DNA from: an uncultured Opitutaceae bacterium
Lineage (GTDB): Bacteria > Verrucomicrobiota > Verrucomicrobiia > Opitutales > Opitutaceae
Direction: 5' to 3'
NCBI GenBank assembly: GCA_964640465.1
Contig: CAZXHR010000002.1
Span: forward strand, 1-61,671
DNA length: 61,671 nt
Position numbers and translations under genes: made by a program. Shown here piece by piece: positions 1,460-19,090 of the stretch (the stretch's first letter is position 1; each line of letters opens with the position of its first letter). The notes below the pieces were generated by a model that was not told where the DNA came from, searched no databases, and was given only the letters and a program-made list of their open reading frames with translations.

Positions 1460-1486
1460 GGATGATTCCTTTGGTTGGGAGAGGGT

Positions 1487-3161: not shown

Positions 3162-3225
3162 GGAGAGGAGCGGACGGAGCGGAACGGAAGGCAGGGCGAG
3201 GCGTTCGCGGGAGAGCCGGGCTTGC

Positions 3226-3256
3226 GGCGGCTCACCGGGGACGGTTCGCCCTACCT
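3226..3256. repeat. GC-rich interspersed repeat with a CCCTACC head (REP-like), copy 1
   Basis: About 28 of 30 nt are identical to 53905-53935 (gcggctcaccgggg[a/c]cggttcgccct[a/g]cct). It shares the 12-mer ccctacctcgga with 11281-11292. It lies between metQ and metN. Confidence 0.6.
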
Positions 3257-3275
3257 CGGATGCGGAGTGGCGCGA

Positions 3276-4115: not shown

Positions 4116-4224
4116 TTTCGATTTCTTGTTCCGGGGCGCGTCGGGCGACGGCGGACCGTGGTGGCGGCCGTCGGGAAGCGCGGAGCTGCGAGACGTTCGC
4201 CGGGCTCCGCGGGTGCGCGCGGCT

Positions 4225-5262
4225 TCAGTTGCGGGCGTTGAACTGCGCGAGCTTGGCCTTCCAGTAGGAGTCGCCGGGTTGCGCGGAGAGGAGGGAGTCG
4301 AGGGCCGCCTTGAACGGCGTGGTGTCGATGTCGCGGCGGATGTCGCGGTCGGATTGGACGAAGGCGCTTTGGCGGAGCGCATCCCAGAACTGGACGATGC
4401 CAGCGACGTTGGGATCGCTGCTGAACTCGGTGTTGCCGCCCTCGATGACCTCGGCGACGAGCTTGCGGTCGATCTTGAGCGCGGCGGTGACGAGGTCGAC
4501 GGACTCGGCGCGGTGCTCCTCGAGGAAGCGCTCGGCGCGGAGGATGGCCTTCAGGTAGGAGCCCCAGACCTGCGGGCGCTTGGCGAGGTCCTCGGCGAGG
4601 ACGGCGATGCGGCAGCACGGGTGGCCGGGCGAGAGCTTGCCGGTGCGCACGAGGACCTTGAGGCCGTACTCCTCGGCCTTGGTGTCGAAGGGCGCCCAGA
4701 CGACGCCGGCGTCGATCTCGCCGGAGCGCACGGCCTCGACGACGGCGGCCGGGCTCTTCAGCTCGAAAACCTGGATATCGGTGCGCCAGTCGATGCCGGC
4801 CTTGAACAGTTCGGAGCGCACGACGGCGTCGCTGGAGGAGAGGCGGACGGTGCCGACCTTCAGGCCCTTGAGGCCTTTCAGGTCGGAGACCTTGGCGGCG
4901 GTCTCGGCGCGGACGACGACGGCGGAGCCCTCGCCGCCGAGGCCGCCGATGATGCGGAGATTCTCGGCGCCCTTGGCGATGTGCACCAGCGGAGCGGTGA
5001 CGCCGACGGAGCCGGCGTCGTTCTTGCCGCCGCGCAGGGCGGCGATGCCGTCGGCGCTGTTGGCGAACTCGACGAGTTCGACGTCGAGGCCCTCCTCGGC
5101 GAAGAAGCCCTTGTCGCGGGCGATGACGAGTTTGGAGTGCTCGGGCACCGGGATGATGCCGACTTTCAGGTGGACCTTCTCCGCCGACTGGGCGGGGAGG
5201 AAGGCCGGCGCGGCGAGCGCGGCGGCGAGGAATAGGCGGGCGAGCGTGCGGGATGTTTTCAT
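4225..5262 (-). CDS. ABC substrate-binding protein, NMT1/THI5-like (NitT/TauT family), paralog 2
   Basis: Start reset to the ATG at 5262 (MKTSRTLARLFLAAALAAPAFL, a signal peptide). Paralogous to 14340-15410 and shares the HPCCR motif with it. Confidence 0.75.
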   Translation of the reverse strand: MKTSRTLARLFLAAALAAPAFLPAQSAEKVHLKVGIIPVPEHSKLVIARDKGFFAEEGLDVELVEFANSADGIAALRGGKNDAGSVGVTAPLVHIAKGAENLRIIGGLGGEGSAVVVRAETAAKVSDLKGLKGLKVGTVRLSSSDAVVRSELFKAGIDWRTDIQVFELKSPAAVVEAVRSGEIDAGVVWAPFDTKAEEYGLKVLVRTGKLSPGHPCCRIAVLAEDLAKRPQVWGSYLKAILRAERFLEEHRAESVDLVTAALKIDRKLVAEVIEGGNTEFSSDPNVAGIVQFWDALRQSAFVQSDRDIRRDIDTTPFKAALDSLLSAQPGDSYWKAKLAQFNARN

Positions 5263-5305
5263 GGAAACGATGGCGTGGCGGTGAGGTGGGCGGAGTGTGG
5301 GACGT

Positions 5306-6448
5306 TCAGGCTTGGAGGGCTTGGCGGAGATCGGCCTCGAGGTCGTCGGCGGCTTCGAGTCCGACGGAGAGGCGGATGAGGTTGTCGTGGATGCCACGGC
5401 GGGCGCGTTCCTCGGGGGAGATGGAGGCGTGGGTCATCCGCGGCGGGTAGCAGAGCAGCGACTCCACGCCGCCTAGACTCTCGGCGAGGACGAAGAGCTT
5501 GAGCTTGGCGACGAGGCGCTCGACGGCGGGGAAGCCGCCCTTGATCTGGAGGCTGATCATGCCGCCGAAACCGCGCATCTGGCGCTTGGCCAGCGCGTGC
5601 TGGGGATGGCTCGACAGGCCGGGGTAGTAGACGCGTTCGACGGCCGGGTGCGCTTCGAGGAAACGGGCGAGGCGCAGCGCGGTGGTTTGCTGCTCTTCGA
5701 TGCGGACCTTGAGCGTCTTGATGCCGCGGAGGACGAGCCAGGAGTCCCACGGGCCGGGGACGGCGCCGGCGGCGTTCTGGTAGAACTTGATCGGGTCGTA
5801 GAGATCGCGCTCGGAGGTGACGAGGGCGCCGCCGACGACATCGCTGTGCCCGCCGAGGTACTTCGTGGTGCTGTGGACGACGACGTGCGCGCCGAGCTCC
5901 AGCGGACGCTGGAGGTAGGGGCTGGCGAAGGTGTTGTCGACGACGAGGAGCAGGCCGCGGCGGTGGGCGAGCGCGCCCAGTGCGGCGATGTCGACGAGCT
6001 TGAGCAGGGGGTTCGTCGGCGACTCGACCCAGATGAGCGCGGTCTTCGGGCCGATGGCGGCCTCGACGGCGGCGGTGTCGCTGGCATCCACATAGCGGAT
6101 GTCGACGCCCCACGGGCGGAGGATCTTCTCGAAGATGCGGTAGGTGCCGCCGTAGGTGTCGTCGCTGGCGAGGATCTGGTCGCCGGGTTTGACGAGCTGG
6201 AGGGCGGCGGTGGTGGCGGCGTTGCCGGAGCCGAAGGCGAGGCCGTACTTGCCGCCTTCGAGCAGGGCGAGCGCAGCCTCGAGCGCCTGGCGCGTCGGGT
6301 TGCCGGAGCGCGAATACTCGAAGCCCTCGCGGAACTTGCCGATGGCGTCCTGCTGGAAGGTGGAGGTCTGGTAGATCGGCACGCTCACCGCGCCGGTGCG
6401 GGGATCGGGCGCCTGACCGTCGTGGATGGCGAGAGTTTCAAATTTCAT
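5306..6448 (-). CDS. cystathionine gamma-lyase/gamma-synthase family PLP enzyme
   Basis: 380 aa with the PLP-lysine motif HSTTKYLGGHSD. Overlaps the CBS gene by 11 nt, a context that favours the gamma-lyase role in reverse transsulfuration. Confidence 0.8.
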   Translation of the reverse strand: MKFETLAIHDGQAPDPRTGAVSVPIYQTSTFQQDAIGKFREGFEYSRSGNPTRQALEAALALLEGGKYGLAFGSGNAATTAALQLVKPGDQILASDDTYGGTYRIFEKILRPWGVDIRYVDASDTAAVEAAIGPKTALIWVESPTNPLLKLVDIAALGALAHRRGLLLVVDNTFASPYLQRPLELGAHVVVHSTTKYLGGHSDVVGGALVTSERDLYDPIKFYQNAAGAVPGPWDSWLVLRGIKTLKVRIEEQQTTALRLARFLEAHPAVERVYYPGLSSHPQHALAKRQMRGFGGMISLQIKGGFPAVERLVAKLKLFVLAESLGGVESLLCYPPRMTHASISPEERARRGIHDNLIRLSVGLEAADDLEADLRQALQA

Positions 6449-7805
6449 AGGAGTCGCGGTGGCTGAAGGTGGTGATGAGGTCGAAGCGGCTGACGAGGCC
6501 GAGCGGGCGGCCGGCGCGGGTGACGACGAGGGCGGGCGAGCCGCCGAGGAGGATGCGGTAGGCCTCGGCGAGGTCGGTGGACTCGTCGAGGGACGGCAGC
6601 GGTTTTCCCATGACAGCGCGGATCTCCTGGTTCTGGAGGTCGACGCCGTCGTGCAGCGCCTTCATGAGCGTGGCCTCGTTGAGGCTGCCGACGACGCGCC
6701 GGTCCTCGACGACGGGGAGCTGCGAGATGTTGTGCTCCTGGAAGAGCTGGATGGCGGAGCGCAACCGATCCTGCGGGCGCACGGCGATGAGCTGCGGCAG
6801 CGCCGACTTCTCGGCGAGGACGCGGCCGAGCGGGATGGGCCGGGCGGCGCGCTCCTGCCAGAAGCCGTTCTGCTGCATCCACTCGTCGGAGTAGAGTTTG
6901 CTGAGGTAGTTGCGGCCGGTGTCGGGGAGGATGACGACGATCTCGCGCGGCTCGGCGAGGCGCTGGGCGAACTTGAGCGCGGCGGCCAGCGCGGTGCCGG
7001 CGGAGCCGCCGGCGAGGATGCCCTCCTCGCGGGCGAGGCGGCGCGCGGTATTGAAGGAGTCCTTGTCGCTCACGCGCACCATCTCGTCGACGAGCTGGCG
7101 GTTGAACGTCTTCGGGATGAAGTCCTCGCCGATGCCCTCGACCTTGTAGGAGCGCGGCGAGTCGCCGGAGAGGATGGAGCCCTCGGGGTCGGCGCCGACG
7201 ACGACGATGTTCGGGTTCCTCTCCTTCAGGTAGCGCGCGGTTCCGGAGATGGTGCCGCCGGTGCCCATGCCCGCGACGAGCACGCCGACGCGGCCCTCGG
7301 TGTCCTCCCAGATCTCGGGTCCGGTGGAGCGGTAGTGGGCGAGCGGATTGTTCGGGTTGGTGAACTGGTCGGGGCGGAACGCGCCGGGAATCTCGCGTGC
7401 GAGCCGGTCGGCGACGCCGTTGTAACTCTCGGGCGAGTCGGGCGCGACGTTGGTGGCGGTGACGACGACCTCGGCGCCGTAGGCGCGCAGGAGGGCGATC
7501 TTCTCGCCGCTCATCTTGTCGGGCAGGACGACGATGAGGCGGTAGCCCTTCACGGCGGCGGCGAGGGCGAGGCCGACGCCGGTGTTGCCGGCGGTGGCCT
7601 CGACGATGGTGCCGCCGGGCTTGAGCAGGCCGGCCTTCTCGGCCTCCTCGATCATGAGGAGACCGACGCGGTCCTTGACGCTGCCGCCCGGGTTGAGGGA
7701 CTCGACCTTGGCGTAGATGGGCGAGGCGAGGCCGGCGCCGAGGCGTTCGAGGCGGACGAGCGGCGTGCGGCCGACGGCCTGGAGGATGTTGGAATAGCGA
7801 GCCAT
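6438..7805 (-). CDS. cystathionine beta-synthase (CysK-like PLP domain plus a C-terminal CBS-domain pair)
   Basis: 455 aa with the PGGSVKDR PLP motif, followed by a tandem CBS-domain region (ISQLPVVEDRRVVG...). Confidence 0.85.
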   Translation of the reverse strand: MARYSNILQAVGRTPLVRLERLGAGLASPIYAKVESLNPGGSVKDRVGLLMIEEAEKAGLLKPGGTIVEATAGNTGVGLALAAAVKGYRLIVVLPDKMSGEKIALLRAYGAEVVVTATNVAPDSPESYNGVADRLAREIPGAFRPDQFTNPNNPLAHYRSTGPEIWEDTEGRVGVLVAGMGTGGTISGTARYLKERNPNIVVVGADPEGSILSGDSPRSYKVEGIGEDFIPKTFNRQLVDEMVRVSDKDSFNTARRLAREEGILAGGSAGTALAAALKFAQRLAEPREIVVILPDTGRNYLSKLYSDEWMQQNGFWQERAARPIPLGRVLAEKSALPQLIAVRPQDRLRSAIQLFQEHNISQLPVVEDRRVVGSLNEATLMKALHDGVDLQNQEIRAVMGKPLPSLDESTDLAEAYRILLGGSPALVVTRAGRPLGLVSRFDLITTFSHRDSYEI

Positions 7806-7836
7806 GCGAATGGTGTCGTTGAAGGTTGGAGCTCGA

Positions 7837-8493
7837 TCAGAGCTTGGAGGCGGGATTGAGCAGGCGCTGGTAGTAGAAGCCGCTGGTGTAGAGGGCGGCG
7901 GCGGGGTTGTGGCCGGTCACCCGGTCCTTGGTGATGAGCGTGGTGACGGGCGCGGCGGAGTGGCGGATGAAGAGCGAGTCGTGGCCGACGCAGAGGCCGA
8001 CGATGACGTTGAGGTCGGTCTTCTCGCGGTTGAGCAGCTCGGCCTGGAGGACCGGGTTGCAGATGGCCTCGTAGGAGCCCTTCTTGACCTTGAGCGAATC
8101 GGGGATGCCGACGTCGCACTTGTCGACGGAGCCGACCTTGCAGAGCACGGCGTACGACTCGAGCCCGTGGGCCTTGAGGATGCGCGTGAAGATGCGCGTC
8201 TCCTCGATGAGGCCGATACAGGTGGCGATCCCGATACGTTTCGCGCCGATGCGGTTGGCGAAGGCGACGATCTCCTCGACGCGGGTGAGCTTGCCGTAGT
8301 AGGTGCCCTCGACCTCGGCGGCGGCGTGCGCCATCCGGGCCTCGAGCTCGTCGCCGCGGTAGACGGCGGCGGTCTGCTCGACTAGGGCACGGTCGGCGCG
8401 CTCGGTGAGGCAGAAGTCGGGGAAGCGCTTGTCGCGGCGGTAGCAGTTAAGCAGGCCGCACTGGGCGCAGGATTGGGAGAGTTCGGCGGTCAT
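7837..8493 (-). CDS. DUF1847-like Cys-rich metal-binding protein
   Basis: Start reset to the ATG at 8493, forming an ATGA overlap with the upstream stop. The N-terminus is CAQCGLLNCYRRDKRFPDFC. I recall this family from corrinoid methyltransferase neighbourhoods. Confidence 0.6.
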   Translation of the reverse strand: MTAELSQSCAQCGLLNCYRRDKRFPDFCLTERADRALVEQTAAVYRGDELEARMAHAAAEVEGTYYGKLTRVEEIVAFANRIGAKRIGIATCIGLIEETRIFTRILKAHGLESYAVLCKVGSVDKCDVGIPDSLKVKKGSYEAICNPVLQAELLNREKTDLNVIVGLCVGHDSLFIRHSAAPVTTLITKDRVTGHNPAAALYTSGFYYQRLLNPASKL

Positions 8494-10160
8494 GAGGCGA
8501 AGGCGAGGGCGTCGACGAACGTGCGCTGGAACGCGGCGTCGTTGGCGAGTTCGAGCACCTGGACACCGGTGACAGTGCGGCCGAGGTGCTCGCGGGTGTG
8601 GCGGTTGAGGAGGAAGGCGCGAGCGCCGGACTTGGAGGTGTTGCCGACGAACTCGACGCGGTCGGCGAACTCGCGCGGGAGCAGCCCGAGGTGGATCAGG
8701 CTGGCGGTGCGCAGGTGGAAGCCGAACGAGCCGGCGATGAGCACGCGGTCGACCTGGGCGGCGGTGCGGCCGACGGCGGCGAGGAGCGACTCGATGCCGG
8801 TGCGCACAGCGGCCTTGGCGAGCTGCACCTGGCGGATGTCCTTCTGCGAGAGGTAGACGGTGTCGGTGAGCCGGAAGACGGGCTTGCCGTCGAGCGTGCC
8901 GAGACGGTCCTTCCACGGGCGGTCGGGCGCGGCGCCGTTGGTGCGGAAACGGCCGTTCTTGTCGACGGCGCCGTGTGCGGCGAACTCGGCGACGGCGTCG
9001 AGCAGGCCGCTGCCGCAGACGCCGGTGGGTGCGGTCTCGCCGATGGTGCGCAGCTCGACGGAGTCGCCCGCGAGCGAGACGAACTCGATGGCGCCGCGGC
9101 CGGCGCGCATGCCGCAGGCGATGTTCATGCCCTCGAAGGCCGGGCCGGCGGCAGTCGAGGTGGCGACGAGCTTGCCGTCGGCGGCGAGGACCATTTCGCC
9201 GTTGGTGCCGATGTCGACGAAGAGGGTGACGCCGCGCAGCGCGGCGAGATCCGTGGCTAGGATACCGGAGGTGATGTCGGCGCCGACGTAGGCGGACATG
9301 ATCGGCGGCAGGTAGACCTGGCCGCCCGGGGCGAGCTCGAGGCCGATGGAGGCGGCGTCGACGCTTTCGTCGCCGCGCAGCCTGGGCGTGTACGGGTACT
9401 TGCCCAGCGAGGCCGGGTCGGTGCCGGTCGCGAGGTGGATCATCGTGGTGTTGCCGCTGAAGATCGCCTCGTAGATGTGGGCGCGGTCGATCCGCGCCTC
9501 GGCGGCGGCCTCCGCGACGAGGCGGTTCAACTCGGCGATCACCTCGGTGTGGAGCGTGCGCAGGCCCTCGGGCGTGGAGCCGAGCTTGATGCGGGAGAGG
9601 ACGTCCTGGGCGTGGCGCGCCTGCGGGTTGAGCGCGGAGGCGTGGGCGAGTTCGCGGCCGTCGCGCAGGTCGACGAGGGCGACGACCATGGTGGTCGTGC
9701 CGATGTCAATAGCGGCGCCGTAGAGGGCGGCGGTGGTGTCGCCGGATTCCGAGGCCACGATCCGGCCGCCGGCGATGACGGCGGTGCGGTTGGAAACGGG
9801 ATCGAACGACTTCTCGAACCAAGGCGCGATGTCGACGGCGACGGTCTGGCCCTCGCGCAGGATCTTCAGCCCCTCGTCCTTCTTGAGCGGGACTTCGACG
9901 GCGAGGTCGCCGTGGACGAAGGTCTGGCAGGCGAGGGACCAGCCGGCGGCGCGGTCGGCCTCGGCGATCTTGTTGTGCGGGGACTCGACGGCGTGGGCGC
10001 GGGTGGCGGCGTCGAGCCGCACGCGGCATTTGCCGCAGGTGCCGGCGCCGTTGCAGGGCAGGTCGAAGCGGATACCGGCGCTCCTGATCGCGGCGAGCAG
10101 GGAGCGGCGCTCGGGGACCTCGACGGTGAGGTTCTGGAGGATGAAATGGACCTTGGGCAT
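8490..10160 (-). CDS. reductive activator of corrinoid enzymes (RACE/RACo-like: N-terminal 2Fe-2S ferredoxin plus an ASKHA ATPase domain)
   Basis: 556 aa. The N-terminus has the plant-type ferredoxin Cys pattern LPCNGAGTCGKCRV...ACQT. The remainder is an actin-like ATPase region (DIGTTT..., DIGTNGE). Confidence 0.8.
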   Translation of the reverse strand: MPKVHFILQNLTVEVPERRSLLAAIRSAGIRFDLPCNGAGTCGKCRVRLDAATRAHAVESPHNKIAEADRAAGWSLACQTFVHGDLAVEVPLKKDEGLKILREGQTVAVDIAPWFEKSFDPVSNRTAVIAGGRIVASESGDTTAALYGAAIDIGTTTMVVALVDLRDGRELAHASALNPQARHAQDVLSRIKLGSTPEGLRTLHTEVIAELNRLVAEAAAEARIDRAHIYEAIFSGNTTMIHLATGTDPASLGKYPYTPRLRGDESVDAASIGLELAPGGQVYLPPIMSAYVGADITSGILATDLAALRGVTLFVDIGTNGEMVLAADGKLVATSTAAGPAFEGMNIACGMRAGRGAIEFVSLAGDSVELRTIGETAPTGVCGSGLLDAVAEFAAHGAVDKNGRFRTNGAAPDRPWKDRLGTLDGKPVFRLTDTVYLSQKDIRQVQLAKAAVRTGIESLLAAVGRTAAQVDRVLIAGSFGFHLRTASLIHLGLLPREFADRVEFVGNTSKSGARAFLLNRHTREHLGRTVTGVQVLELANDAAFQRTFVDALAFAS

Positions 10161-10165
10161 GGCGG

Positions 10166-11191
10166 TCAGTTGTTGCGCACGGTGTCGGTGAACGCGCGGA
10201 GGGCGTCGATGCGGGTCGAGGTGCTCAGGCCGCAGGCTGGCGAGAGGATGTCGATGCCGCTGCGGACCAGGTTGCGGGTCATGTCGCGGATGCGGTCGGC
10301 GTCGGTGAACTCGAGCGCGTAGGTGCTCAGGTTGCCCATGGTGACGAGGCCGGGGTGGTCGCGCTTGAGGGCGGCGAGGTTGATCATCGCGTCGGTGCTC
10401 AGGGCGGCGAAGCGGAGCTGTGTCACCAGATGCTCGACGCGCTTGAGGTTGCCGCAGATGTGGAGGATGGGCGGGACGCCTGCGGCGCGGATGGCGTCGG
10501 CCAGGCGGTTGAGGTACGGCGCGGCGAAGGCCTCGAACATCGCCGGCCCGAGGATCTCGCCGGTGGCGGACGGGTCGCCGATCATGACGGAGGTGACGCG
10601 GCCCTCGCGGACGAGCACGGTGGCGTACTCGACGAGGAAGTTGGTGACGTAGTCGAGGACGTGGTGCGCGGCCGCGGGGTCCTTGCGCATGTCCTTGTAG
10701 AAGGCCAGGGGCTGGACGATGGAGGCGGCGGTGCTGACCGGGCCGGTGAGGCTGGCGATGACGGGCACGCCTGGGTTGCGCGCGGCGACGATGCGGGAGG
10801 CCTCGGCGACGACGGCGGCGCGGCCCGTGCGGGCGAGCGGGACGATCTCCCGGTACTCGACGACGGCGGAGGTGGCGAAGGGTTCGAGCGCGATCTTCGG
10901 CTCGCAGGCGAGCGTGCCCAGATCGACGCTACTGCCGAGCAGCTCGGCCTCGACGGTCATGCAGAAGGGCACGCCGATGTTCTCGAAACCGGTGTGGGCG
11001 CGGACGGCCTCGGCCAGCGCGGCCATGCGGACGGGATCGCTGTGCGCCTCGGGCAGCGTGAGGCCCGTGGCGTTCATGACGTCGACGATGGCGGCGTTCA
11101 TCATCCCGCCGGTGCAGATGACCGGCGAGCGATCGGCCCGCTCGCGATGGAGGACGTGGAGCAGGCGGTCTTTCTCGGTGAGGTTGCTCAT
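10166..11191 (-). CDS. URO-D-family methylcobamide:thiol-type methyltransferase (MtaA/MtbA/MtsA-like), copy C
   Basis: 341 aa. The Zn-ligand pattern is retained: HICG (H-x-C) plus a downstream PACG. Confidence 0.8.
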   Translation of the reverse strand: MSNLTEKDRLLHVLHRERADRSPVICTGGMMNAAIVDVMNATGLTLPEAHSDPVRMAALAEAVRAHTGFENIGVPFCMTVEAELLGSSVDLGTLACEPKIALEPFATSAVVEYREIVPLARTGRAAVVAEASRIVAARNPGVPVIASLTGPVSTAASIVQPLAFYKDMRKDPAAAHHVLDYVTNFLVEYATVLVREGRVTSVMIGDPSATGEILGPAMFEAFAAPYLNRLADAIRAAGVPPILHICGNLKRVEHLVTQLRFAALSTDAMINLAALKRDHPGLVTMGNLSTYALEFTDADRIRDMTRNLVRSGIDILSPACGLSTSTRIDALRAFTDTVRNN

Positions 11192-12381
11192 GACGATTGG
11201 GCCTGGTGTAAGGAAGTGACGGTTGCAGGTAGGGCGGGACCGCCGGGCCCGCCGCGTTCACGGACGGCCCAGCGGTCCGTCCCTACCTCGGAGAGTTCGT
11301 TGCGAGTCTCGGAACTATTGGCGCTTTGGAGGGCGGAAGGGTTGACGGGCCAGCCGAGCTCGCGGACGGCGTCGAGCATGGCGTCGATGTTGGCGAAGGG
11401 AGTCTCGACCGGCAGGGAGCAGCCGGAGGCGACAACGAGGCCGCGCGGGTTGTCGGCGGCGGCGCGGACGGTGGCGAAGACGGACGCGCGTACCTGGGCG
11501 GGCGTGCCCTGGAGCATGACCTCGGAGGGCGGGACGTTGCCCATGAGGCGGACGCGGTGGCCGATCCGCGCTTTGGCGTCGGCGAGGGCGGCGGCGTTGT
11601 CGAGCGAGAGGCAGTCGGCGCCGGTATCCGCCATGTCGGTCCAGATCGGGTGGGTCTTGCCGCAGATGTGCAGCGTGACGGAGCGTTTCTGCGAATGGAG
11701 AAATTCGACCAGGCGGCGCAGGTACGGCGCGCCGAACTCGCGGAACTGGCGCGGGCTGATGACCGTGGAGGAGCACATGGCGTCGGTGAGGCTCGGCGAC
11801 GCGCCGGTGGCGAGGATGGCGCGCGCGTAGGCGAGGGTGCTCTCGTAGGCGACCTCGACGAGGCGGTGGACGGCGGCGGGATCGCGGAGCATGAGGCGCG
11901 CGAGGTTCTCGGCGCCGATCAGGAACGACGCGGTGGTGAACGGCCCGGTGAGCGCGCCGGTGACGGGCACCTCGTGGCCGACGGCCTTGAACGCGATCTC
12001 CATCGCCTCGAGGTGATGCGGGAGGTTGCCGTCCTTCGACGGGTCGACGACGCGCAACGAGGCGATCTGGTCGACGTCGGCGATGGCCGGCGCGCCGAGG
12101 TAGGCGGTCTCGTCGTCGGGATAGTGGACCTGCGCGCCCATCGCCTCGGCGAGGGTGTAGAGGTCGGTGAAGATGCGGATGTTGTCGTAGCCGAAGCGGC
12201 GGTAGGCTGCGACGTGGGCGTCGGCGAGGAGGCGGCCGTTGCCGCGGAACGCGGAGATCTTGGCGCCGACGAGGCGCGCGGCGGTGTTGCCGACGATCGG
12301 CACGCAGGGGAGCCGGTCGATCGGCTGTCCGCGGCCGTAGGCGGCGAGGCGCTCCAAAGGACTGAGACGGTCGCGGCTCAT
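11188..12381 (-). CDS. URO-D-family methyltransferase, copy B, with a C-terminal extension of about 50 aa
   Basis: 397 aa with Zn ligands HICG plus SGCS. The tail is encoded by the REP-like doublet. There is an ATGA overlap with the downstream gene. Confidence 0.8.
   Translation of the reverse strand: MSRDRLSPLERLAAYGRGQPIDRLPCVPIVGNTAARLVGAKISAFRGNGRLLADAHVAAYRRFGYDNIRIFTDLYTLAEAMGAQVHYPDDETAYLGAPAIADVDQIASLRVVDPSKDGNLPHHLEAMEIAFKAVGHEVPVTGALTGPFTTASFLIGAENLARLMLRDPAAVHRLVEVAYESTLAYARAILATGASPSLTDAMCSSTVISPRQFREFGAPYLRRLVEFLHSQKRSVTLHICGKTHPIWTDMADTGADCLSLDNAAALADAKARIGHRVRLMGNVPPSEVMLQGTPAQVRASVFATVRAAADNPRGLVVASGCSLPVETPFANIDAMLDAVRELGWPVNPSALQSANSSETRNELSEVGTDRWAVRERGGPGGPALPATVTSLHQAQSS
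11227..11288. repeat. REPIN-like inverted doublet with AGGTAGGG heads
   Basis: Arms 11227-11243 (aggtagggcgggaccgc) and 11272-11288 (gcggtccgtccctacct) are complementary at 15 of 17 positions. The doublet lies inside the 3' tail of ORF 11188-12381. Confidence 0.65.
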
Positions 12382-12382
12382 G

Positions 12383-13045
12383 TCAGGCGGCGACGTCGGC
12401 GGTGAGGAGCTGTTGGATGAGTTTCACGGCGGCGGGCGCGGTGGGCGAATAGCCGTCGGCGCCGATGCGTTTGGCGAAACCGGCGGAGATCGGGCCGCCG
12501 CCGACGATGACCTTGAACTTCTCGCGTACGCCGGCCTGTTCGAGCAGGCGGACGACTTCGCTCATCGCGTCCATCGTGGTCGTCATGAGCGTGGAGAGCG
12601 CGATGACGCTGGCGCCGGACTTGATCGCCTCGTCGACGAAACGCTGCGGGGCGATGTCGCGGCCGAGGTCGATGAGCTCGAAGCCGGCGGCCTCTAGCAT
12701 GATCTTCACGAGGTTCTTGCCGATGTCGTGCGTGTCGCCCTCGACGACGCCGATGACGATCTTCTTGCGCTCCTTGGTGCTGTCGCGGCGGATATGCGGC
12801 CGGAGGATGTCGAGGCCGGTGTACATCGCATCGGAGCAGAGCAGGAGCTCGGGGATGAAGTACTCCTCGGTCTCGAAGAGCTGGCCGGCGCGGTTCATGC
12901 CGTCGACCAGGCCGTTCTCGATGGCGGTGGTGGCGTCGACGCCTTGGGCGACCACGGAGTTTGCGTGTGTGCGGGTGGAGTCTTCATCCATGCCGACGAC
13001 GGAATCGGAGAGGGCGCGGAAGAGTTCGGATTGCTGCTGGCTCAT
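12383..13045 (-). CDS. corrinoid (B12-binding) protein, MtaC/MtbC/MtsB-like
   Basis: 220 aa with the DxHxxG motif (GDTHDIGKN), an S-x-L motif (ALSTLM) and a GG motif (VIVGGGPI), preceded by an N-terminal helical cap domain. Confidence 0.9.
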   Translation of the reverse strand: MSQQQSELFRALSDSVVGMDEDSTRTHANSVVAQGVDATTAIENGLVDGMNRAGQLFETEEYFIPELLLCSDAMYTGLDILRPHIRRDSTKERKKIVIGVVEGDTHDIGKNLVKIMLEAAGFELIDLGRDIAPQRFVDEAIKSGASVIALSTLMTTTMDAMSEVVRLLEQAGVREKFKVIVGGGPISAGFAKRIGADGYSPTAPAAVKLIQQLLTADVAA

Positions 13046-13100
13046 GGGAGAAATGGGAGAGAGGGGAAGGATGGGAGGAATGGGATGCGCGGAGCGGAAC

Positions 13101-13126
13101 GGTCGCGGGCGAGCCGCGACCCTACC
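13101..13126. repeat. REP-like hairpin with a GGTAGGG head (minus-strand reading GGTAGGGTCGCGGCTCGCCCGCGACC)
   Basis: Palindrome ggtcgcgg/ccgcgacc, read directly. The TAG within the head is the stop codon of the gene at 13122-14171. Confidence 0.65.
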
Positions 13127-14171
13127 GCAAGCGTGGTGGCGGTTGCGGGGTTGTGGCGCGGGCGGTGGCGACCATGGCCTGGACGTTGGCGAGCGGGACG
13201 GAGGGAGGGATGTCGCAGCCGGGCATGACGAGGTAGCCGGCGCCGGGGCCGGCGAGGCGGATGCTCTCGCGGCAGGCGGCGGCGACGCCCTCGGGCGTCT
13301 CCTTCTGCAGGATGGCGACGGGATTCATGTTGCCTGCGAAGGCGATGTGGCCGCCGAGGGCGCGGCGCGCGGCGGAGAGGTCGACCTTGTAGTCGACGGA
13401 CATGATCTGCGCGCCGGTCGCCGGGATGGTATCCAGACGGTTGGTGGTGTTGCCGCAGATGTGGACGAGCACCCAGACGCCGCGGGCGCGGATGCGGGCG
13501 GCGACACGGGCGAGGTAGGGTTGCGCGAACTCGACGAACTGCTCGCGCGAGATCAGGTCGCCCGAGGCGGTGGGATCGGCGAGCGAGACGAGCGAGACGC
13601 CGGCGTCGATGAACGGCTCCAGGTAGGCGAAGCAGAGCTCGGCGGAGAAATCGAGGACGGCGTGGACGGCGGCGGGGTCCTTGCGGATCGCGCGCATGAG
13701 GTTCTCGACGCCGTAGGCCAGCCCGCCGAGCGTGAACGGCGCCCACTGGCTGGTGCCGACGACGGTGTGCGAGCCGATGGAACGGGAGAGGATGCCGGCG
13801 GCGGCGACCAGTTGGCGGATACCGGCGTCGTCCCCGACGCGGCGCGGGTCGATGCGCGGGATATCGGCGAGCGAGCGCAGGAGCGGCTCCTGGACATCGG
13901 GCGTGCCCTTGGCGCGGAACTTCAGGCGGCCGCCGACGCCGCGGATGGCGAGGTTGTGGTAGCCGGAGCCGGGCCAGACGATGTCGGCGCCGACCTTGAC
14001 GTTGGTCTCTTCGATGACCTCGGCGATGCGTTCGCCGCCGACCTCCAGGGCGCGCTCCAGCGTGAGGCCGCTCTGGTTGAGCGTCCACGCGCCGGCGGAG
14101 AGCAACGACACGGGCTGGCGTGGCGTGGCTTCGAGCCGGATGAGACTGGAGACGATTTCCCTGGAGGTCAT
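13122..14171 (-). CDS. URO-D-family methyltransferase, copy A
   Basis: 349 aa with Zn ligands HICG plus PGCD. Confidence 0.8.
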   Translation of the reverse strand: MTSREIVSSLIRLEATPRQPVSLLSAGAWTLNQSGLTLERALEVGGERIAEVIEETNVKVGADIVWPGSGYHNLAIRGVGGRLKFRAKGTPDVQEPLLRSLADIPRIDPRRVGDDAGIRQLVAAAGILSRSIGSHTVVGTSQWAPFTLGGLAYGVENLMRAIRKDPAAVHAVLDFSAELCFAYLEPFIDAGVSLVSLADPTASGDLISREQFVEFAQPYLARVAARIRARGVWVLVHICGNTTNRLDTIPATGAQIMSVDYKVDLSAARRALGGHIAFAGNMNPVAILQKETPEGVAAACRESIRLAGPGAGYLVMPGCDIPPSVPLANVQAMVATARATTPQPPPRLR

Positions 14172-14339
14172 GGCGACGGACGGATGGAGGCGGAGCGGTT
14201 TGGTTGGGTGGTGGTGGCGGGCGGAAGGACGGAGGCGGTTGGCGTTCGGCTCACACGGGGAGCGCTGGCCGAGCGCGCGACCCGCTTGGGGGCAAGCGGG
14301 TCCACCCGCAGGCGGGCGGCAGCGCGTGTCGGTAGGTAC

Positions 14340-15410
14340 TCAGGGTTTGGTGGCGGGCGCGGTGTCGCGCTTCACGTAGTCGGCCTCGAGTTGCTTCCAG
14401 AACGGGTCCTTCGGGCTGGCGGTGGCGGCTGAGTCGAGGGCGCGCTTGTAGAAGGAGGTGTCGACGAAGGAGGCGATGTCGCGCTCCTGCTCGGCGTACC
14501 CGATGCGACGCATGACGTTCCAGAAGCGGACCGTGTTCGCGATGTCGGGATCGGTCGGCTGGTCGTTGAGGTACGACGCATCGATGATGTGGCGGTCGAG
14601 CTTGATGTACTTGGTGATGATATCGACGGCCTGGTCGCGGTGGTCGTGGCCGAACTTCTCGGCCTTGAGCAGCGCGGCGATCACGCCGGCGATGACCTGG
14701 GGACGCTCGGTGACGTCCTTGGTCTGCACCACCAGGCGGCAGCACGGGTGGTTGGGGAGGAGATCGTGGCTGGTGGCGACGACCTTCAGACCGCTCTCGA
14801 CGGCGCGGACGACGTGCGGCTCCCAGACGGTGCCGGCGTCGACTTCGCCCGAGCGGACGGCCTCGATGACGGCCGGCGGGCTCTTGAGCTCGAAGATCTG
14901 GATATCCTTGCCGGGGACGATGCCCAGGTCGAGGAGGTGGCCGCGCAGGGCGGTGTCGGCGGAGGAGAGGCGGACGACGGCGACCTTGCGGCCCCTGAGA
15001 TCGGCGACGCTCTTGATCGTGGCGGCCTTTTCGGCGGTCGTGATCAGCGCGGCATCCTCGTTGTGGATGCCGCCGACGATCCGGATGTCGGCGCCCTTGG
15101 CGATGTGGAAGAGCGGGGCGGTGGCGCCGAAGGCGCCGAAGTCGAGCTTGCCGGCGCGGACGGCGGCGAGACCGTCAGCGGAGTTCTGGAACTCGACTAG
15201 CTCGACCTTGAGGCCCTGCTCGGCGAAGTAGCCGAGTTCCTGGGCGACGAAGATCTTGCCCTGGCCGGGCACGAGGATGTGGCCGAACTTGATCGGCGTG
15301 AGTTCGGTGGCGGGCGCTGCGGGGGCGGGGTTCTCGGCATGGAGAACGGCGGCTGTCAGCAACGCGAGCGCGGCGGGAAGCGAGCGCTGGAGGATGGAGT
15401 TTGGTTTCAT
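14340..15410 (-). CDS. ABC substrate-binding protein, NMT1/THI5-like (NitT/TauT family), paralog 1
   Basis: 356 aa with a signal peptide and the HPCCR motif. Adjacent to the permease and ATPase genes. Confidence 0.8.
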   Translation of the reverse strand: MKPNSILQRSLPAALALLTAAVLHAENPAPAAPATELTPIKFGHILVPGQGKIFVAQELGYFAEQGLKVELVEFQNSADGLAAVRAGKLDFGAFGATAPLFHIAKGADIRIVGGIHNEDAALITTAEKAATIKSVADLRGRKVAVVRLSSADTALRGHLLDLGIVPGKDIQIFELKSPPAVIEAVRSGEVDAGTVWEPHVVRAVESGLKVVATSHDLLPNHPCCRLVVQTKDVTERPQVIAGVIAALLKAEKFGHDHRDQAVDIITKYIKLDRHIIDASYLNDQPTDPDIANTVRFWNVMRRIGYAEQERDIASFVDTSFYKRALDSAATASPKDPFWKQLEADYVKRDTAPATKP

Positions 15411-15444
15411 TGGGAGTGCGTGATGGAGAGGTGGAAGCAGCGGG

Positions 15445-16296
15445 TCAGCGGACCCAGAAGAGGGCGCGGCGGCGGATGCGTTCGAGCAGGCCGGTGGTGA
15501 GCAGCACGACGACGCTGGTGTAGAGGATGCCGGCGACCATGCGCGGGTAGTCGGCGTAATCGGCGTAGAGCTGGATGAAGCGGCCGAGGCCGGCGCTGGC
15601 GCCGAAGAGCTCGGCGATCGTCAGCATGATGAACGAGAACACGAGGCCGACGGAGAGGCCGGAGAAGATGTGCGGAAGCGCGGCGGGGAAGACGACGTGG
15701 CGGAGGTACTCGGCGCGGCCGAGGCCGAGGATGAGGGCGTTGTCGCGGAAGCGGCGGGGAACCGAGCCGGCGCCGGCGGTGGTATTGAGGAATATGGGCC
15801 AGAAGGCGCCGACGAAGACGATGAAGCCGGCGGCGGTGCGGAAGGAGGGCAGCAGCGCGATCGCGTAGGGGATGTAGATCGTGGGCGGGATCGGCGATGC
15901 CAGGCGCGAGAATGCCGAGAAGAGCCGGTGCAGCGCGGGCGTGGTGCCGACGAGCAGGCCCCAGACGATGCCGGCGACGACGGCGAGCAGGTATCCCGGC
16001 GCGAGGATCAGGAAGGAGGAGACGGAGCCCTTGAGCAGCTCGGGCAGCGAGAGCCAGAGGGCCTTGAGCGAGGCCCATGGCGTGGGGAACAGGTAGCTGC
16101 CGGAGAAGGAGAGGCCGGCACTGACGACGATCCAGAGTGCGAGCAGCGCGAGGAGGAAGACGGCGCCCTCGCGGCCGTGGAGAATTCGCCAGGGACGGAA
16201 GGGCGCGGCGACGGGCGAGTCCGGGAGCTTGTTGCCGTGGGCGAGGATCGTGGTCGGCGCGGAGTCCGCTTGTGCGGTATCGGCGAGTGTGCTCAT
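15445..16296 (-). CDS. ABC transporter permease (SsuC/TauC-like)
   Basis: 283-aa polytopic protein, similar to binding-protein-dependent transport permeases. Confidence 0.8.
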   Translation of the reverse strand: MSTLADTAQADSAPTTILAHGNKLPDSPVAAPFRPWRILHGREGAVFLLALLALWIVVSAGLSFSGSYLFPTPWASLKALWLSLPELLKGSVSSFLILAPGYLLAVVAGIVWGLLVGTTPALHRLFSAFSRLASPIPPTIYIPYAIALLPSFRTAAGFIVFVGAFWPIFLNTTAGAGSVPRRFRDNALILGLGRAEYLRHVVFPAALPHIFSGLSVGLVFSFIMLTIAELFGASAGLGRFIQLYADYADYPRMVAGILYTSVVVLLTTGLLERIRRRALFWVR

Positions 16297-16303
16297 GGGA
16301 GTG

Positions 16304-17146
16304 TCAGATGCCCTCGGCGACGGAGGCGACGAGCGACTCGGCTTCGATCCGGTCGATCAGGTCCTGTTGGAAGCGTTCGTCGATGCGTTGGCGCAGGGCG
16401 ACGAACTCCGGCGTGCGGGAGAGTTCGCGGCGCTGGCGCGGGCGAGGGAAGGGGATGTCGAGCTGCTCGATGACGCGGCCGGGCGTGGAGCCGAGGAGGA
16501 CGACGCGGTCGGAAAGGTACAGGGCCTCGTCGAGGTCGTGGGTGACGAAGACGACGGTCTTGCGCGGGCTGGAACCGGCCCAGATGGCGATGAGAAGATC
16601 CTGGAGCTTGGCGCGGTTGAGCGGATCGAGGGCGCCGAAGGGCTCGTCCATGAGGAGCACCTTTGAGCCGAGGGCGAAGGTGCGCGCGATGGCGCCGCGC
16701 TGGAGCATGCCGCCGGAGAGTTCGAAGGGATACTTCGCGGTGGCGGCCTCGAGGCCGACGAGCCCGAGGAATTCGGCGGCGGTGATGCGGCGCTGCTCGT
16801 CGGTGGTCTCCGGGTGGGACTTGGAGAGGGCGAACTCGACGTTCTCGGAGAGCGTGAGCCACGGGAAGAGCGAGTAGTCCTGGAAAACGACTCCGCGTTC
16901 CAACGACGGGCCGACGAGCGGACGGCCCTGCCAGGAGAGGCTGCCGGACTGTGGGCGATCGAGACCGGCGAGGAGGCGCAGGAGCGTGGTCTTGCCGCAA
17001 CCGCTCGGGCCGAGAAGCGAGACGAACGATCCGGCGGCGATATCGAGCCGGATGTCGGATAGGATCGGCGTGCCGGCGTAGGCGAAGTTGACGGCTTCGA
17101 TCTGCAGGCCGGTGTCGGCGGAGGTGGTGGCGGGTGTGGTGCTCAT
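16304..17146 (-). CDS. ABC transporter ATP-binding protein (SsuB/TauB-like)
   Basis: Start reset to the ATG at 17146. Walker A GPSGCGKTT, signature LSGGMLQR, Walker B LLMDEPFGALD. Confidence 0.85.
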   Translation of the reverse strand: MSTTPATTSADTGLQIEAVNFAYAGTPILSDIRLDIAAGSFVSLLGPSGCGKTTLLRLLAGLDRPQSGSLSWQGRPLVGPSLERGVVFQDYSLFPWLTLSENVEFALSKSHPETTDEQRRITAAEFLGLVGLEAATAKYPFELSGGMLQRGAIARTFALGSKVLLMDEPFGALDPLNRAKLQDLLIAIWAGSSPRKTVVFVTHDLDEALYLSDRVVLLGSTPGRVIEQLDIPFPRPRQRRELSRTPEFVALRQRIDERFQQDLIDRIEAESLVASVAEGI

Positions 17147-17401
17147 GGATCGCGGTGCGCGGTTGAGGCGGGTGGGCGAAGTGGGTGGGACGGGCCGGGT
17201 GGCGTGTGGGCGGGAGTTGCGAGTTGGGCGAAGCGAGGACTGGCGGAGTTGAGGGTTGGTGACGGATTTCGGGCATGGCATGGCCCACGCCCCGTGTCTC
17301 GGGAGTTCGGAGAGGAGGGCCGGTGTGGCGGAGACCGCTCAGCCGTCACACCGGCCGTGGCTGCGTCGAGATGTGGGGGACGCAGCGAAGATGGTGCGGG
17401 A

Positions 17402-18748
17402 TCAGAAGGCGGCGCGGAGGCCGAAGGTCAGGATGTCCTGCGAGTAGGTGCGGCCGGGGAAGGCGGTGTGGTCGAGTTTGTTCCGGGCCTCGTTGCGGGC
17501 GTAGTCGACGGTGAGCGCCCAGTTCTTGTCGACGTCGTAGCGTAGGCCGGCGGAGTAGGTGTAGAACCAGTCCTTGCGGACGGTGGGCAGGGCGTAATCG
17601 GAACCGAGGATACGGAAGCCGAGGTTGCCGGAGAGCGCCGGGGAGAACTTGTGCCTGAGGGTGAGCCCGTAGGTGCTGTCGCGGTAGGAGGCGACGCCGG
17701 TGCTGGAGACGAAGTTCCAGATCTTGTGGGCGAGGACGAGGGAGTCGTTGGCGGAGAGGTCGGCGGTGGCGGAGGCCTCGGTGTAGAGCCAGGTGTGGTT
17801 CTTCTCGGCGATGCCGCGTGTGGCGGTGGCGTTGTCGAAGGTGCGGAAATCGGGGCCGGCCTGGAGGTCGACCTTCAGCCAGGAGGCGAGCTTGCCTTCG
17901 ACGCCGACGAGGAGGCGGCTGTACTTGCTGGCGCTGTCGACCTGCGACCAAGGGAGGTCGTCCTGCCCTTGCGCGCCGTAGCGGTAGCCGGTCCAGAGCG
18001 AGACGTTCTTGTTCAGCTTGGCGCCGACGTCGATGCCGGCGTTCAGGTCCTGGCGGTCGATGTAGTTCTGATACCCGACGTAGGTCCCGGTGGGCTGGTG
18101 GAGCTGGGTCTTGAGGTCGTAGTAGAGGACGTTGGCGACGGCGCGGACGAACCAGGCATCGGCGTCGTAGCGGAGCTGGAGCTTGGCGCGGTCCTGGAAC
18201 TGCTCCTTGCGCTCGCGGGAGCTGGCGGAGCCGTAGGCGTTGAGGAGGCCGTACTGCGGCGTGGTGGACTTGCCGTCGACGTAGGTGAAGGTGTTGTCGA
18301 GGGAGAAGGTGACGGCGTCGGACTTCGTTTTGAGCTGCTGGGAGAAGTTGTGGCGCTGGTTGGTCTCGCTGGAGGCGGAGTGGTAGAACGCGTAGTCGGC
18401 GGCGTAGCCGATGTTGAAGGCGGTGACGGCGGAGTTGTCGCCGAGGCCGAGGGCGGAGCGGAGGTTGAGGACGGCCTTCGGGGAGATGACGGTGACCCAG
18501 GATTCGACGTCGGCCACTTCGGGCAGGCCGGCGAGGGTGGGGTTGAACTCGGTGCCGTAGACGTTGGAGTCGTAGGTTTCTTTGACGGTGACCGAGAGTT
18601 CGGTGAGGGCGGCGGGCTTCTCGGCGAGGGCCGAGGTGGCGAGGCCGGCGGTGGCGGCGAGGGCGAGCAGGCGCGGGAGGCGGGCGAGCTGGCGTTGTTG
18701 CGAGGAGGTCGCGCGGGACGACCGGTTGAGCGCGAGAGAGAAGGACAT
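17402..18748 (-). CDS. outer-membrane beta-barrel protein (putative porin/channel)
   Basis: 448 aa with a signal peptide (LALAATAGLATSALA). The body has the alternating Tyr/Gly/Asp-rich pattern of amphipathic strands, and the protein ends in a terminal Phe (LRAAF). Confidence 0.65.
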   Translation of the reverse strand: MSFSLALNRSSRATSSQQRQLARLPRLLALAATAGLATSALAEKPAALTELSVTVKETYDSNVYGTEFNPTLAGLPEVADVESWVTVISPKAVLNLRSALGLGDNSAVTAFNIGYAADYAFYHSASSETNQRHNFSQQLKTKSDAVTFSLDNTFTYVDGKSTTPQYGLLNAYGSASSRERKEQFQDRAKLQLRYDADAWFVRAVANVLYYDLKTQLHQPTGTYVGYQNYIDRQDLNAGIDVGAKLNKNVSLWTGYRYGAQGQDDLPWSQVDSASKYSRLLVGVEGKLASWLKVDLQAGPDFRTFDNATATRGIAEKNHTWLYTEASATADLSANDSLVLAHKIWNFVSSTGVASYRDSTYGLTLRHKFSPALSGNLGFRILGSDYALPTVRKDWFYTYSAGLRYDVDKNWALTVDYARNEARNKLDHTAFPGRTYSQDILTFGLRAAF

Positions 18749-18907
18749 GTTGAGAGGAGTCGGTTGGCTGACGAGGGCTCCAGTTGTCTGGTCGGAGTGG
18801 GATGGGTTGGGATCGCCGCTGGTGCGGTGGATTTGGCGGCTGCGCGCCGCCGGAACGGAAAGGTGTGGGGACGGCTTGGGCTGCGCGGCGCGGCTGGGGA
18901 GCGGAGA

Positions 18908-19090
18908 TCAGGGCAGGGAGGCGCTAGTGAGGCGGGTTTTCTCGGTGCGCTCGATGAGGGTGACCTTGGCGTCGTGGATGACGATCTGGACGACTCCGAA
19001 GCGCAGGTCCCTGACTTTGTCGCGGACGATGTTCAGCCATTCGGGGGCATTCTCTGCGCTAGGAGCTTGAGGATTGGCTGTGGTGCTCAT
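18908..19090 (-). CDS. YezD/DUF2292-like small protein
   Basis: Start reset to the ATG at 19090, giving 60 aa. The core FGVVQIVIHDAKVTLIERTEKTRL resembles the DUF2292 pattern. It is the first gene of the minus-strand array. Confidence 0.6.
   Translation of the reverse strand: MSTTANPQAPSAENAPEWLNIVRDKVRDLRFGVVQIVIHDAKVTLIERTEKTRLTSASLP

Follow-up and report, generated by a model that had tools for sequence, protein, structure and literature searches.

We analysed a putative uptake module (positions 14340-19090, minus strand) in a 61,671-nucleotide stretch of DNA from an uncultured Opitutaceae bacterium (assembly GCA_964640465.1, contig CAZXHR010000002.1), called the window below. The module comprises a small DUF2292 protein, an outer-membrane barrel and a NitT/TauT-type ATP-binding cassette (ABC) importer with its periplasmic solute-binding protein (SBP), here SBP1; a paralogous binding protein, SBP2, is encoded further along the same gene array. 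With a probability of about 0.6, we propose that the module takes up a small reduced-sulfur solute that has an anionic head group and feeds sulfur assimilation, and that a His-Pro-Cys-Cys (HPCC) motif shared by both binding proteins reads the sulfur end of this solute, possibly through a metal. The importer is probably the uptake part of an operon with which this Opitutaceae bacterium, from anaerobic digesters and wastewater, scavenges sulfur.

The organism seems incapable of assimilating sulfate; its assembly, which is 99.2% complete, yielded no match to CysD, ATP sulfurylase or the NIR_SIR sulfite reductase domain. MetY (above the cut-off of TIGR01326), CBS (553 bits against the equivalog cut-off of 510 of TIGR01137) and the CGL-type enzyme, all encoded in the array, together make up a route from sulfide through homocysteine to cysteine. 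Because the genes for sulfate assimilation were not found and this route is present, the organism appears to depend on reduced sulfur, and the 19-kb array appears to be its visible acquisition locus. The DNA occurs in metagenomes of anaerobic digesters and wastewater. In two wastewater metatranscriptome runs, we detected contigs over SBP1, the permease, the ATPase, the barrel, MlpC and CBS with about 1-5% mismatches (5-20 differing letters in 265-477 bases), one of them spanning the gap between barrel and ATPase. These contigs are weak evidence that relatives express importer and enzyme parts.

All genes of the array were verified on the minus strand. Their coordinates and order, the paralog between the CGL-type gene and metQ, and both HPCC motifs stand as the preliminary description of this DNA had them:

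18908-19090, minus strand: DUF2292 (YezD/OscA-like) protein, 60 amino acids, first gene of the array (Pfam PF10055, E 2e-12)
17402-18748, minus strand: outer-membrane beta-barrel, 448 amino acids (signal peptide; weak Pfam matches of its own, stronger ones in homologs)
16304-17281, minus strand: ABC ATPase, NitT/TauT type (ABC_tran, E 9e-30)
15445-16296, minus strand: ABC permease (BPD_transp_1), 283 amino acids (Pfam E 2e-19)
14340-15410, minus strand: SBP1, periplasmic binding protein, 356 amino acids (NMT1_2, E 4e-30; HPCCR encoded at 14736-14750)
8490-14171, minus strand: mlp cassette with MlpA, a corrinoid protein (CorP), MlpB, MlpC and RACo (URO-D, B12-binding and RACo families)
7837-8496, minus strand: DUF1847, cysteine-rich cytoplasmic protein (PF08901, E 1e-64)
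182-7805, minus strand: sulfur amino-acid genes CBS, CGL-type enzyme, (SBP2), MetQ, MetN, MetI and MetY (CBS equivalog model TIGR01137; MetY model TIGR01326)
5306-6448, minus strand: CGL-type gene, one flank of SBP2
4225-5262, minus strand: SBP2, orphan paralogous binding protein, 345 amino acids (NMT1_2, E 6.5e-31; HPCCR encoded at 4609-4623)
3276-4112, minus strand: metQ, the other flank of SBP2

Several genes overlap within 182-19090. Across this interval we found no terminator-like site between same-strand genes and no riboswitch by Rfam, and a sigma-70 promoter scan returned no promoter. The mlp cassette is situated between SBP1 and DUF1847, and the SBP1-MlpA gap, 168 bp long, likewise lacks a terminator-like site.

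The cysteine pair of the binding proteins

SBP1 and SBP2 share 46% identity over 321 residues, and a signal peptide is visible in both sequences. Each has a single cysteine pair as its sole cysteines (C223 and C224 in SBP1), in the contexts NHPCCRLVV (SBP1) and GHPCCRIAV (SBP2). The pair had been expected to be conserved in orthologs and missing from canonical sulfonate and taurine binders, and both expectations were borne out. HPCC is found in 120 of the 120 SBP1 homologs among the matches listed, and in an alignment of 49 sequences with 23-60% identity to SBP1, C223 and C224 are two of just three invariant columns. Among representatives clustered at 50% identity the pair is retained down to about 23% identity. 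Because both cysteines are invariant over such divergence, their conservation goes beyond chance. E. coli SsuA, E. coli TauA and X. citri SsuA lack the pair, with Leu204/Asp205 in TauA and Gly186/Gly187 in SsuA instead.

The same alignments contradict the idea that HPCC is tied to linkage with corrinoid genes. Judged by them, the pair is a mark not of this locus alone but of a very large clade of NitT/TauT binding proteins found in anaerobes; the clade includes proteins of methanogens and sulfate reducers that NCBI names as SsuA-family, some of which pass the SsuA_fam cut-off. The clade splits into a CCR type (82 representatives, including SBP1 and SBP2), with conserved R225, R147, T/S150, D152, D79 and three glycines, and a CCV type (17 representatives), with conserved D47, H49, H221, N116 and Q151. 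The CCV type includes many of the methanogen and sulfate-reducer proteins (H-x-C-C in 116 of the 120 listed) and S. aureus PDB 3UN6, which was deposited with Zn bound. A search among CCV-type proteins for a Gram-positive SsuA that has been characterised yielded only methanogen and sulfate-reducer proteins with automatic names among the matches listed. The C223/C224 column is the cysteine pair of 3UN6 (YCCVLV in 3UN6, HPCCRLV in SBP1), and the putative metal ligands D47, H49 and H221 of the CCV type correspond to V47, G49 and H221 in SBP1. At position 49, 37 of the 82 CCR-type representatives have glycine and 5 have histidine.

Some homologs have a second cysteine pair 2-4 residues from the C-terminus (32 of the 120 listed SBP1 homologs, within P0041-P0115), typically as ...VPNCCRQ, an echo of the internal HPCCR. 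This pair is absent from SBP1 and SBP2, and 28 of the 32 proteins belong to one clade. In homologs with both pairs, it is conceivable that the tail reaches the pocket or that the four cysteines form a metal site. A cysteine-rich motif is present in the yeast protein THI5, which belongs to the same superfamily, and may or may not correspond to the HPCC pair in an alignment.

The predicted model of SBP1 has a mean predicted local distance difference test (pLDDT) score of 92, rising to 97 around the motif, with the pair at the start of a strand. Its closest folds are E. coli SsuA (2x26) followed by 3UN6, and the TauA and NrtA folds also match. Profile alignment places the pair on TauA Leu204/Asp205, equivalent to SsuA Gly186/Gly187. 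According to the TauA paper, these residues line the binding site and set specificity, and Asp205 binds the distal amine of taurine. The pair thus probably lies in the ligand pocket, and since it aligns with residues lining the binding site, the objection that it could be buried far from the cleft does not seem to hold. TauA binds the anion through the backbone at G61, G79 and T132, which correspond to S77, G95 and S/T150 (S150 in SBP1); R147, D152 and R225 are conserved additions to these. The TauA ligand residues Gln30, Glu106 and Asp205 are not retained: they correspond to Ile45, Ala120 and either Cys224 or Arg225, Gln30 being the sulfonate-binding residue of TauA.

Both binding proteins score under the cut-off of every named NCBIfam model, including SsuA_fam (TIGR01728; 158.2 bits for SBP1 and 131.8 for SBP2, cut-off 163.5) and the TauA equivalog model (57.5 bits, cut-off 304). 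In our tree, SBP1 falls inside a well-supported clade of 37 sequences, and SBP2 sits with P0124 on a separate, well-supported long branch. Across three clades an invariant core is retained (N76, S77, D79, G95, T97, G114, E118, R147, D152, D191, W196, H221, P222, C223, C224 and R225). Other pocket windows are invariant within each clade: positions 46-50 read LVPGQ in the SBP1 clade, PVTGH in the third clade and PVPEH in the SBP2 clade, and positions 116-120 read H(N/D)EDA, MGEDA and GGEGS, respectively. Further clade-specific invariant residues occur at position 96 and at 197-200, and SBP2 differs from SBP1 at pocket positions 44-50, 116-120 and 197-199. In the SBP1 clade H116 and H221 are invariant and H44 and H199 nearly so, with acidic residues in the pocket windows. 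The pattern fits SBP1, SBP2 and the third clade being related binders for distinct ligands. It had been suggested that the paralogs widen the substrate range; the distinct clade-invariant pocket residues support this, short of proof. SBP2 lacks membrane components of its own and presumably shares the permease of SBP1. Its orthologs (92-94% identity) occupy the same gene position in two related contigs (L066 and L072).

Membrane components and gene neighbourhood

The module qualifies as a NitT/TauT importer, as its ATPase and permease best match nitrate, taurine and sulfonate systems and an exported binding protein of the NMT1_2 type is encoded with the membrane parts. The best NCBIfam scores of the ATPase (ntrCD 242 bits, TauB 229, SaoA 213) and the best matches of the permease (ntrB, SaoP, TauC and SsuC) are all under the respective cut-offs. 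Homologs of the ATPase align from residues 33-59, near residue 45, and because the alignments begin there, its translation probably starts at Met46 (17146). Codons 1-45 of the longest open reading frame (17147-17281, minus strand) encode a Pro/Arg/Ser/Thr-rich stretch that is matched in the near-identical contig L065 only, and a start at Met46 would widen the barrel-ATPase gap to 255 bp.

The barrel protein has a signal peptide, zero cysteines and a C-terminal Phe. Its own Pfam matches are weak (OMP_b-brl and DUF2490) with no match to PF10082, and a PDB sequence search with it returned no match. Its homologs P0285 and P0279, at 62-67% identity, pass the cut-off of BBP2_2 PF10082 (32 and 36.8 bits, cut-off 23.7). 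The barrel family is narrow (29 proteins), and the longest contigs carrying barrel homologs match in size those carrying SBP homologs. The barrel lies directly upstream of the ABC genes in four related contigs (L065, L066, L067 and L072), in keeping with the coherent outer-membrane and ABC uptake unit described earlier. The DUF2292 protein passes the Pfam DUF2292 cut-off (46.8 bits, cut-off 22) and falls short of the NCBIfam OscA model NF033785 (37.5 bits, cut-off 85). Two Bacillota loci (L147 and L139) likewise have a DUF2292 gene upstream of a CC-type ABC operon.

We compared gene neighbourhoods in 301 genomes of Verrucomicrobiota, from which 11 importer loci were fetched, in 301 genomes of Bacillota, and in a control set of 45 loci with non-CC NitT/TauT binding proteins (22-34% identity) found through chance peptide patterns. 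Related genomes are not independent, so the linkage counts overstate significance. In contigs with SBP1 orthologs of at least 81% identity, the order barrel-ATPase-permease-SBP1-MlpA-CorP-MlpB-MlpC-RACo-DUF1847-CBS-CGL-SBP2 is kept as far as the contigs reach; SBP1 is followed by MlpA in five of them (L065-L068 and L072), and the order of the mlp cassette is kept in L066, L067 and L072. One of these contigs carries an extra SBP gene, 55% identical to SBP1, between barrel and ATPase (L067, 5584-6549), so that two binding proteins stand side by side, and several Verrucomicrobiota loci have two complete tandem ABC copies.

The binding protein is present in 10 of the 301 Verrucomicrobiota genomes and in none of 26 other genomes of the same family. 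DUF1847 occurs in 14 of the 301, nine of which are among the 10 with the binding protein. DUF1847, MetY and CysK are the commonest partners of the importer in the 11 Verrucomicrobiota loci, DUF1847 being the most frequent: it lies beside CC-type ABC genes in seven, and MetY, CysK-like or CGL genes do so in five. An Mlp gene was found in none of the 11. In Bacillota, an MlpB ortholog (60-65% identity) is present in all four genomes with the closest CCR-type binding proteins versus 2 of the 297 others, and three loci with differing gene orders (L140, L143 and L144) have the CCR-type gene in a tight same-strand run with Mlp genes. The partners in these runs are Mlp, CorP and RACo, or MlpB, DUF1847 and CysK, and DUF1847 adjoins the CC-type ABC genes in L140; taken together, the Bacillota CCR-type loci carry CGL, CysK, MetY, DUF1847, Mlp, CorP and RACo. 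In the 45 control loci, by comparison, we found DUF1847 in none, Mlp in two and pyridoxal phosphate (PLP) enzymes of cysteine and methionine metabolism in three. That the association recurs in two phyla and in differing gene orders is difficult to account for unless the genes are functionally linked.

DUF1847 itself has eight cysteines and two histidines that are invariant, and is 53-69% identical between Verrucomicrobiota and Bacillota; its predicted model has a pLDDT of 55. It stands beside CC-type ABC genes or MetY/CysK in loci L056-L063, L140, L152 and L156, and among 14 control genomes it is found in two methanogens only. The copy in the window is closer to a Bacillota copy (69%) than to other Verrucomicrobiota copies (53-58%), and MlpB is 60-65% identical to Bacillota proteins versus at most 37% to those of Verrucomicrobiota. 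Because both are closer to the Bacillota copies, the comparison suggests that the mlp-DUF1847 block may have been acquired by horizontal transfer.

Two loci place a non-CC NitT/TauT-like system with two permease genes within a few kb of Mlp-related genes, one near CorP, MlpC and RACo (L023, 2671-13391) and the other near an MlpB-like gene, CysK and MetY (L106, 8409-17705). Mlp clusters therefore recruit more than one kind of importer of the NitT/TauT family.

Comparison with known systems

The module shares with E. coli SsuABC and TauABC the three-part ABC architecture, the fold of the binding protein (Foldseek E 3e-20 to SsuA 2x26 and 5e-19 to TauA 6ssy) and the backbone anion-binding positions, and both E. 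coli systems are used for sulfur scavenging. Unlike them, it has the cysteine pair, a dedicated outer-membrane barrel and a DUF2292 gene.

3UN6 and the importers of clade B Ni-carbon monoxide dehydrogenase (CODH) have their Cys-Cys in the same aligned column. 3UN6-like proteins are encoded beside clade B CODH (Inoue 2019, PMC6344411; 2026, PMC13592312), where the substrate is unknown. Inoue et al. (PMC6344411) proposed Ni import. The 2026 CODH paper (PMC13592312) presents an AlphaFold 3 (AF3) model of a related binding protein that puts a metal on both cysteines along with one or two histidines, and its authors themselves doubt Ni. Unlike these, the locus in the window has no CODH gene, its partners being DUF1847, Mlp and enzymes of cysteine and methionine metabolism, and its binding proteins are of the CCR type (R225, R147, T/S150, G49) rather than the CCV type of 3UN6.

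A CC motif is conserved in the binding cleft of SaoX, where it was read as a heavy-atom contact, and double-cysteine motifs are absent from all 38 ABC binding proteins of E. coli K-12 (Haft and Gwadz, bioRxiv 10.1101/2022.07.06.499078). All three ABC parts of the module match the Sao models as distant relatives (SaoX 37.6 against a cut-off of 300, SaoP 63.5 against 295 and SaoA 213 against 360). SaoX is a lipoprotein, whereas SBP1 and SBP2 have no lipobox cysteine, and the selenocysteine, MerB-like and double-cubane genes of the SAO locus are absent here. The likeness between the SaoX and SBP1 cysteine pairs is one of description, and the two may or may not share an alignment column.

Type 1 mlp clusters of the non-selenium clade offer another comparison, the importer being placed immediately upstream of one. 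Kountz and Balskus (2023, PMC10418091) described sulfur genes and methionine transporters as accessory genes of mlp clusters and proposed methyl-sulfur metabolism for the non-selenium ones; NitT/TauT importers, DUF1847 and an outer-membrane channel are unmentioned in their paper. The importer stands next to genes for Mlp, corrinoid protein and RACo in three Bacillota loci as well as in five close orthologs; this adjacency was not found in nine Verrucomicrobiota genomes with the importer. Finally, Pseudomonas oscA likewise encodes a small DUF2292 protein leading a sulfur-uptake operon and is induced with sbp, ssu and cysA under sulfur stress; NCBIfam names OscA a sulfur starvation response protein. 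The protein in the window is not an OscA equivalog.

What is already known thus covers NitT/TauT ABC importers, a CC motif in the binding cleft (SaoX) and 3UN6-like binders beside CODH. In the literature searched, we found no description of the CCR subtype, of the linkage of CCR importers to DUF1847, MetY, CysK, CGL, DUF2292 and mlp clusters, or of the dedicated outer-membrane barrel and the argument from a missing sulfate pathway; DUF1847 is unmentioned there and DUF2292 is mentioned in passing at most.

Proposed mechanism, alternatives and meaning

In the mechanism that we propose, a small reduced-sulfur solute would cross the outer membrane through the dedicated BBP2-like barrel, be captured in the periplasm by SBP1 or the orphan paralog SBP2, and be pumped into the cytoplasm by the single NitT/TauT-type permease/ATPase pair. 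Its anionic head group would be held by backbone and Asn/Ser/Thr positions together with the conserved R147 and R225, and His221-Pro-Cys223-Cys224, at the specificity site of the pocket, would contact the sulfur end, either directly through thiols or through a bound metal such as the Zn present in 3UN6. DUF1847 would act on the cargo in the cytoplasm, joined in this lineage by the corrinoid Mlp methyltransferases; MetY would convert the released sulfur to homocysteine, from which CBS and the CGL-type enzyme would then form cysteine. Which way the flow runs, what the ligand is (a small acid bearing a thiol or methylthio group, or a sulfide- or thiosulfate-like species) and whether a metal takes part are inferences. 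A wider version of this reading, in which the whole HPCC(R/V) clade would bind thiolate, sulfide or related soft-atom ligands through the cysteine pair, possibly with a Zn cofactor, and would supply the missing uptake step for DUF1847, non-selenium mlp clusters and clade B 'CODH', seems to us doubtful at present.

Several points weigh against import of a reduced-sulfur solute as proposed here. There is no ligand, metal or transport assay for any CC-type member, and the only solved relative, 3UN6, comes from an unpublished structural-genomics deposition that contains Zn and lacks a ligand. Alignment to TauA is the one source of the pocket placement, and single-sequence and profile alignments differ by one residue in register. 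A 3UN6-like Zn site may be absent from SBP1 and SBP2, because the CCR type does not retain the conserved D47 and H49 of the CCV type (SBP1 has G49). DUF1847 occurs without the importer in four or five genomes, and at E 1e-40 the nine other Verrucomicrobiota genomes with the binding protein gave no MlpB homolog. The gene linkage could reflect shared control under sulfur limitation rather than a substrate chain. The RNA evidence consists of contigs, which are blind to level, strand and single transcripts, may include DNA carry-over and are uninformative for the parts they leave uncovered.

A serious possibility, although one we hold at below even odds, is that the cargo is methylated sulfur (methylmercaptopropionate, S-methylcysteine or another methylthio acid) that serves as the direct methyl donor of the Mlp enzymes, the pair contacting its thioether. 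MlpA following SBP1 after 168 bp without a terminator-like site, an order kept in five related contigs, is as expected from this, and so are the CCR-type proteins beside Mlp, CorP and RACo in L140, L143 and L144 despite their differing gene orders, the co-occurrence of the closest binding proteins with MlpB orthologs in four of four Bacillota genomes, and the methyl-sulfur metabolism proposed for non-selenium mlp clusters (PMC10418091). However, nine Verrucomicrobiota genomes have the importer without an MlpB homolog and the transporter family therefore does not need Mlp enzymes; and since the non-CC systems of L023 and L106 also lie near Mlp genes, the cysteine pair is not required for the Mlp link. 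If the pocket holds Zn, general coordination chemistry implies that a thiolate would bind far better than a thioether. The preliminary description had the importer feeding the corrinoid methyltransferases. Its linkage to them stands in close orthologs and in the three Bacillota loci, the nine genomes without an MlpB homolog depart from it, and delivery of their substrate is plausible but unproven.

We consider it unlikely that the cargo of the module is a metal, an organometallic compound or a metalloid species (Zn, Ni, Co or a selenium compound), with the pair as metal ligand. Such a role would be in line with the Zn in 3UN6, the AF3 model with metal on Cys/His, the Ni import proposed by Inoue et al., the heavy-atom reading of the SaoX motif, the histidines of the SBP1 clade (H116, H221, H44 and H199) with its acidic pocket residues, and the use of Zn and cobalt by neighbouring enzymes. 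Against this, metal-homeostasis genes are not among the recurrent neighbours, which are PLP enzymes of cysteine and methionine metabolism and a DUF2292 gene; Ni is doubted by the authors of the 2026 CODH paper; the 99.2%-complete genome gave no SelD match above cut-off; and the CCV-type histidines are not conserved in the CCR type.

That the pair is a structural vicinal disulfide or a family relic without a role in ligand recognition is slightly less probable still. As the sole cysteines of an exported protein, the two could pair together in an oxidising periplasm, but they are invariant in a clade that has diverged to about 23% identity and align with binding-site residues, the clade occurs in organisms known as anaerobes, and some of its members have the second C-terminal pair. 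Least probable of all is an ordinary aliphatic sulfonate or taurine importer (SsuABC/TauABC): although SsuA_fam is the best named NCBIfam model, with SBP1 near its cut-off, E. coli SsuA is the top fold match and CCV-type relatives pass the SsuA_fam cut-off, both binding proteins miss every named cut-off, TauA Gln30 aligns with Ile45, neither SsuD (TIGR03565) nor TauD (PF02668) has a match in the genome, no desulfonating enzyme was found in the Verrucomicrobiota or Bacillota loci examined, and the clade is distributed over methanogens, sulfate reducers and clostridia, known as strict anaerobes, which cannot run O2-dependent Ssu/Tau chemistry.

Little is known of how strict anaerobes unable to reduce sulfate obtain sulfur when its concentration is low, and the substrates of type 1 mlp clusters, of clade B CODH with its importer and of DUF1847 are open questions. 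In the locus of the window, two soluble binding proteins, neither lipid-anchored and each with one cysteine pair, are encoded beside all candidate downstream enzymes, and the identity of the ligand of SBP1 or SBP2 would narrow the chemistry of these neighbours. If the ligand is an ordinary sulfonate, the finding is routine. If the pair-bearing proteins are indeed a class of soft-atom binders, they would represent a widespread, undescribed route of reduced-sulfur acquisition in anaerobes.

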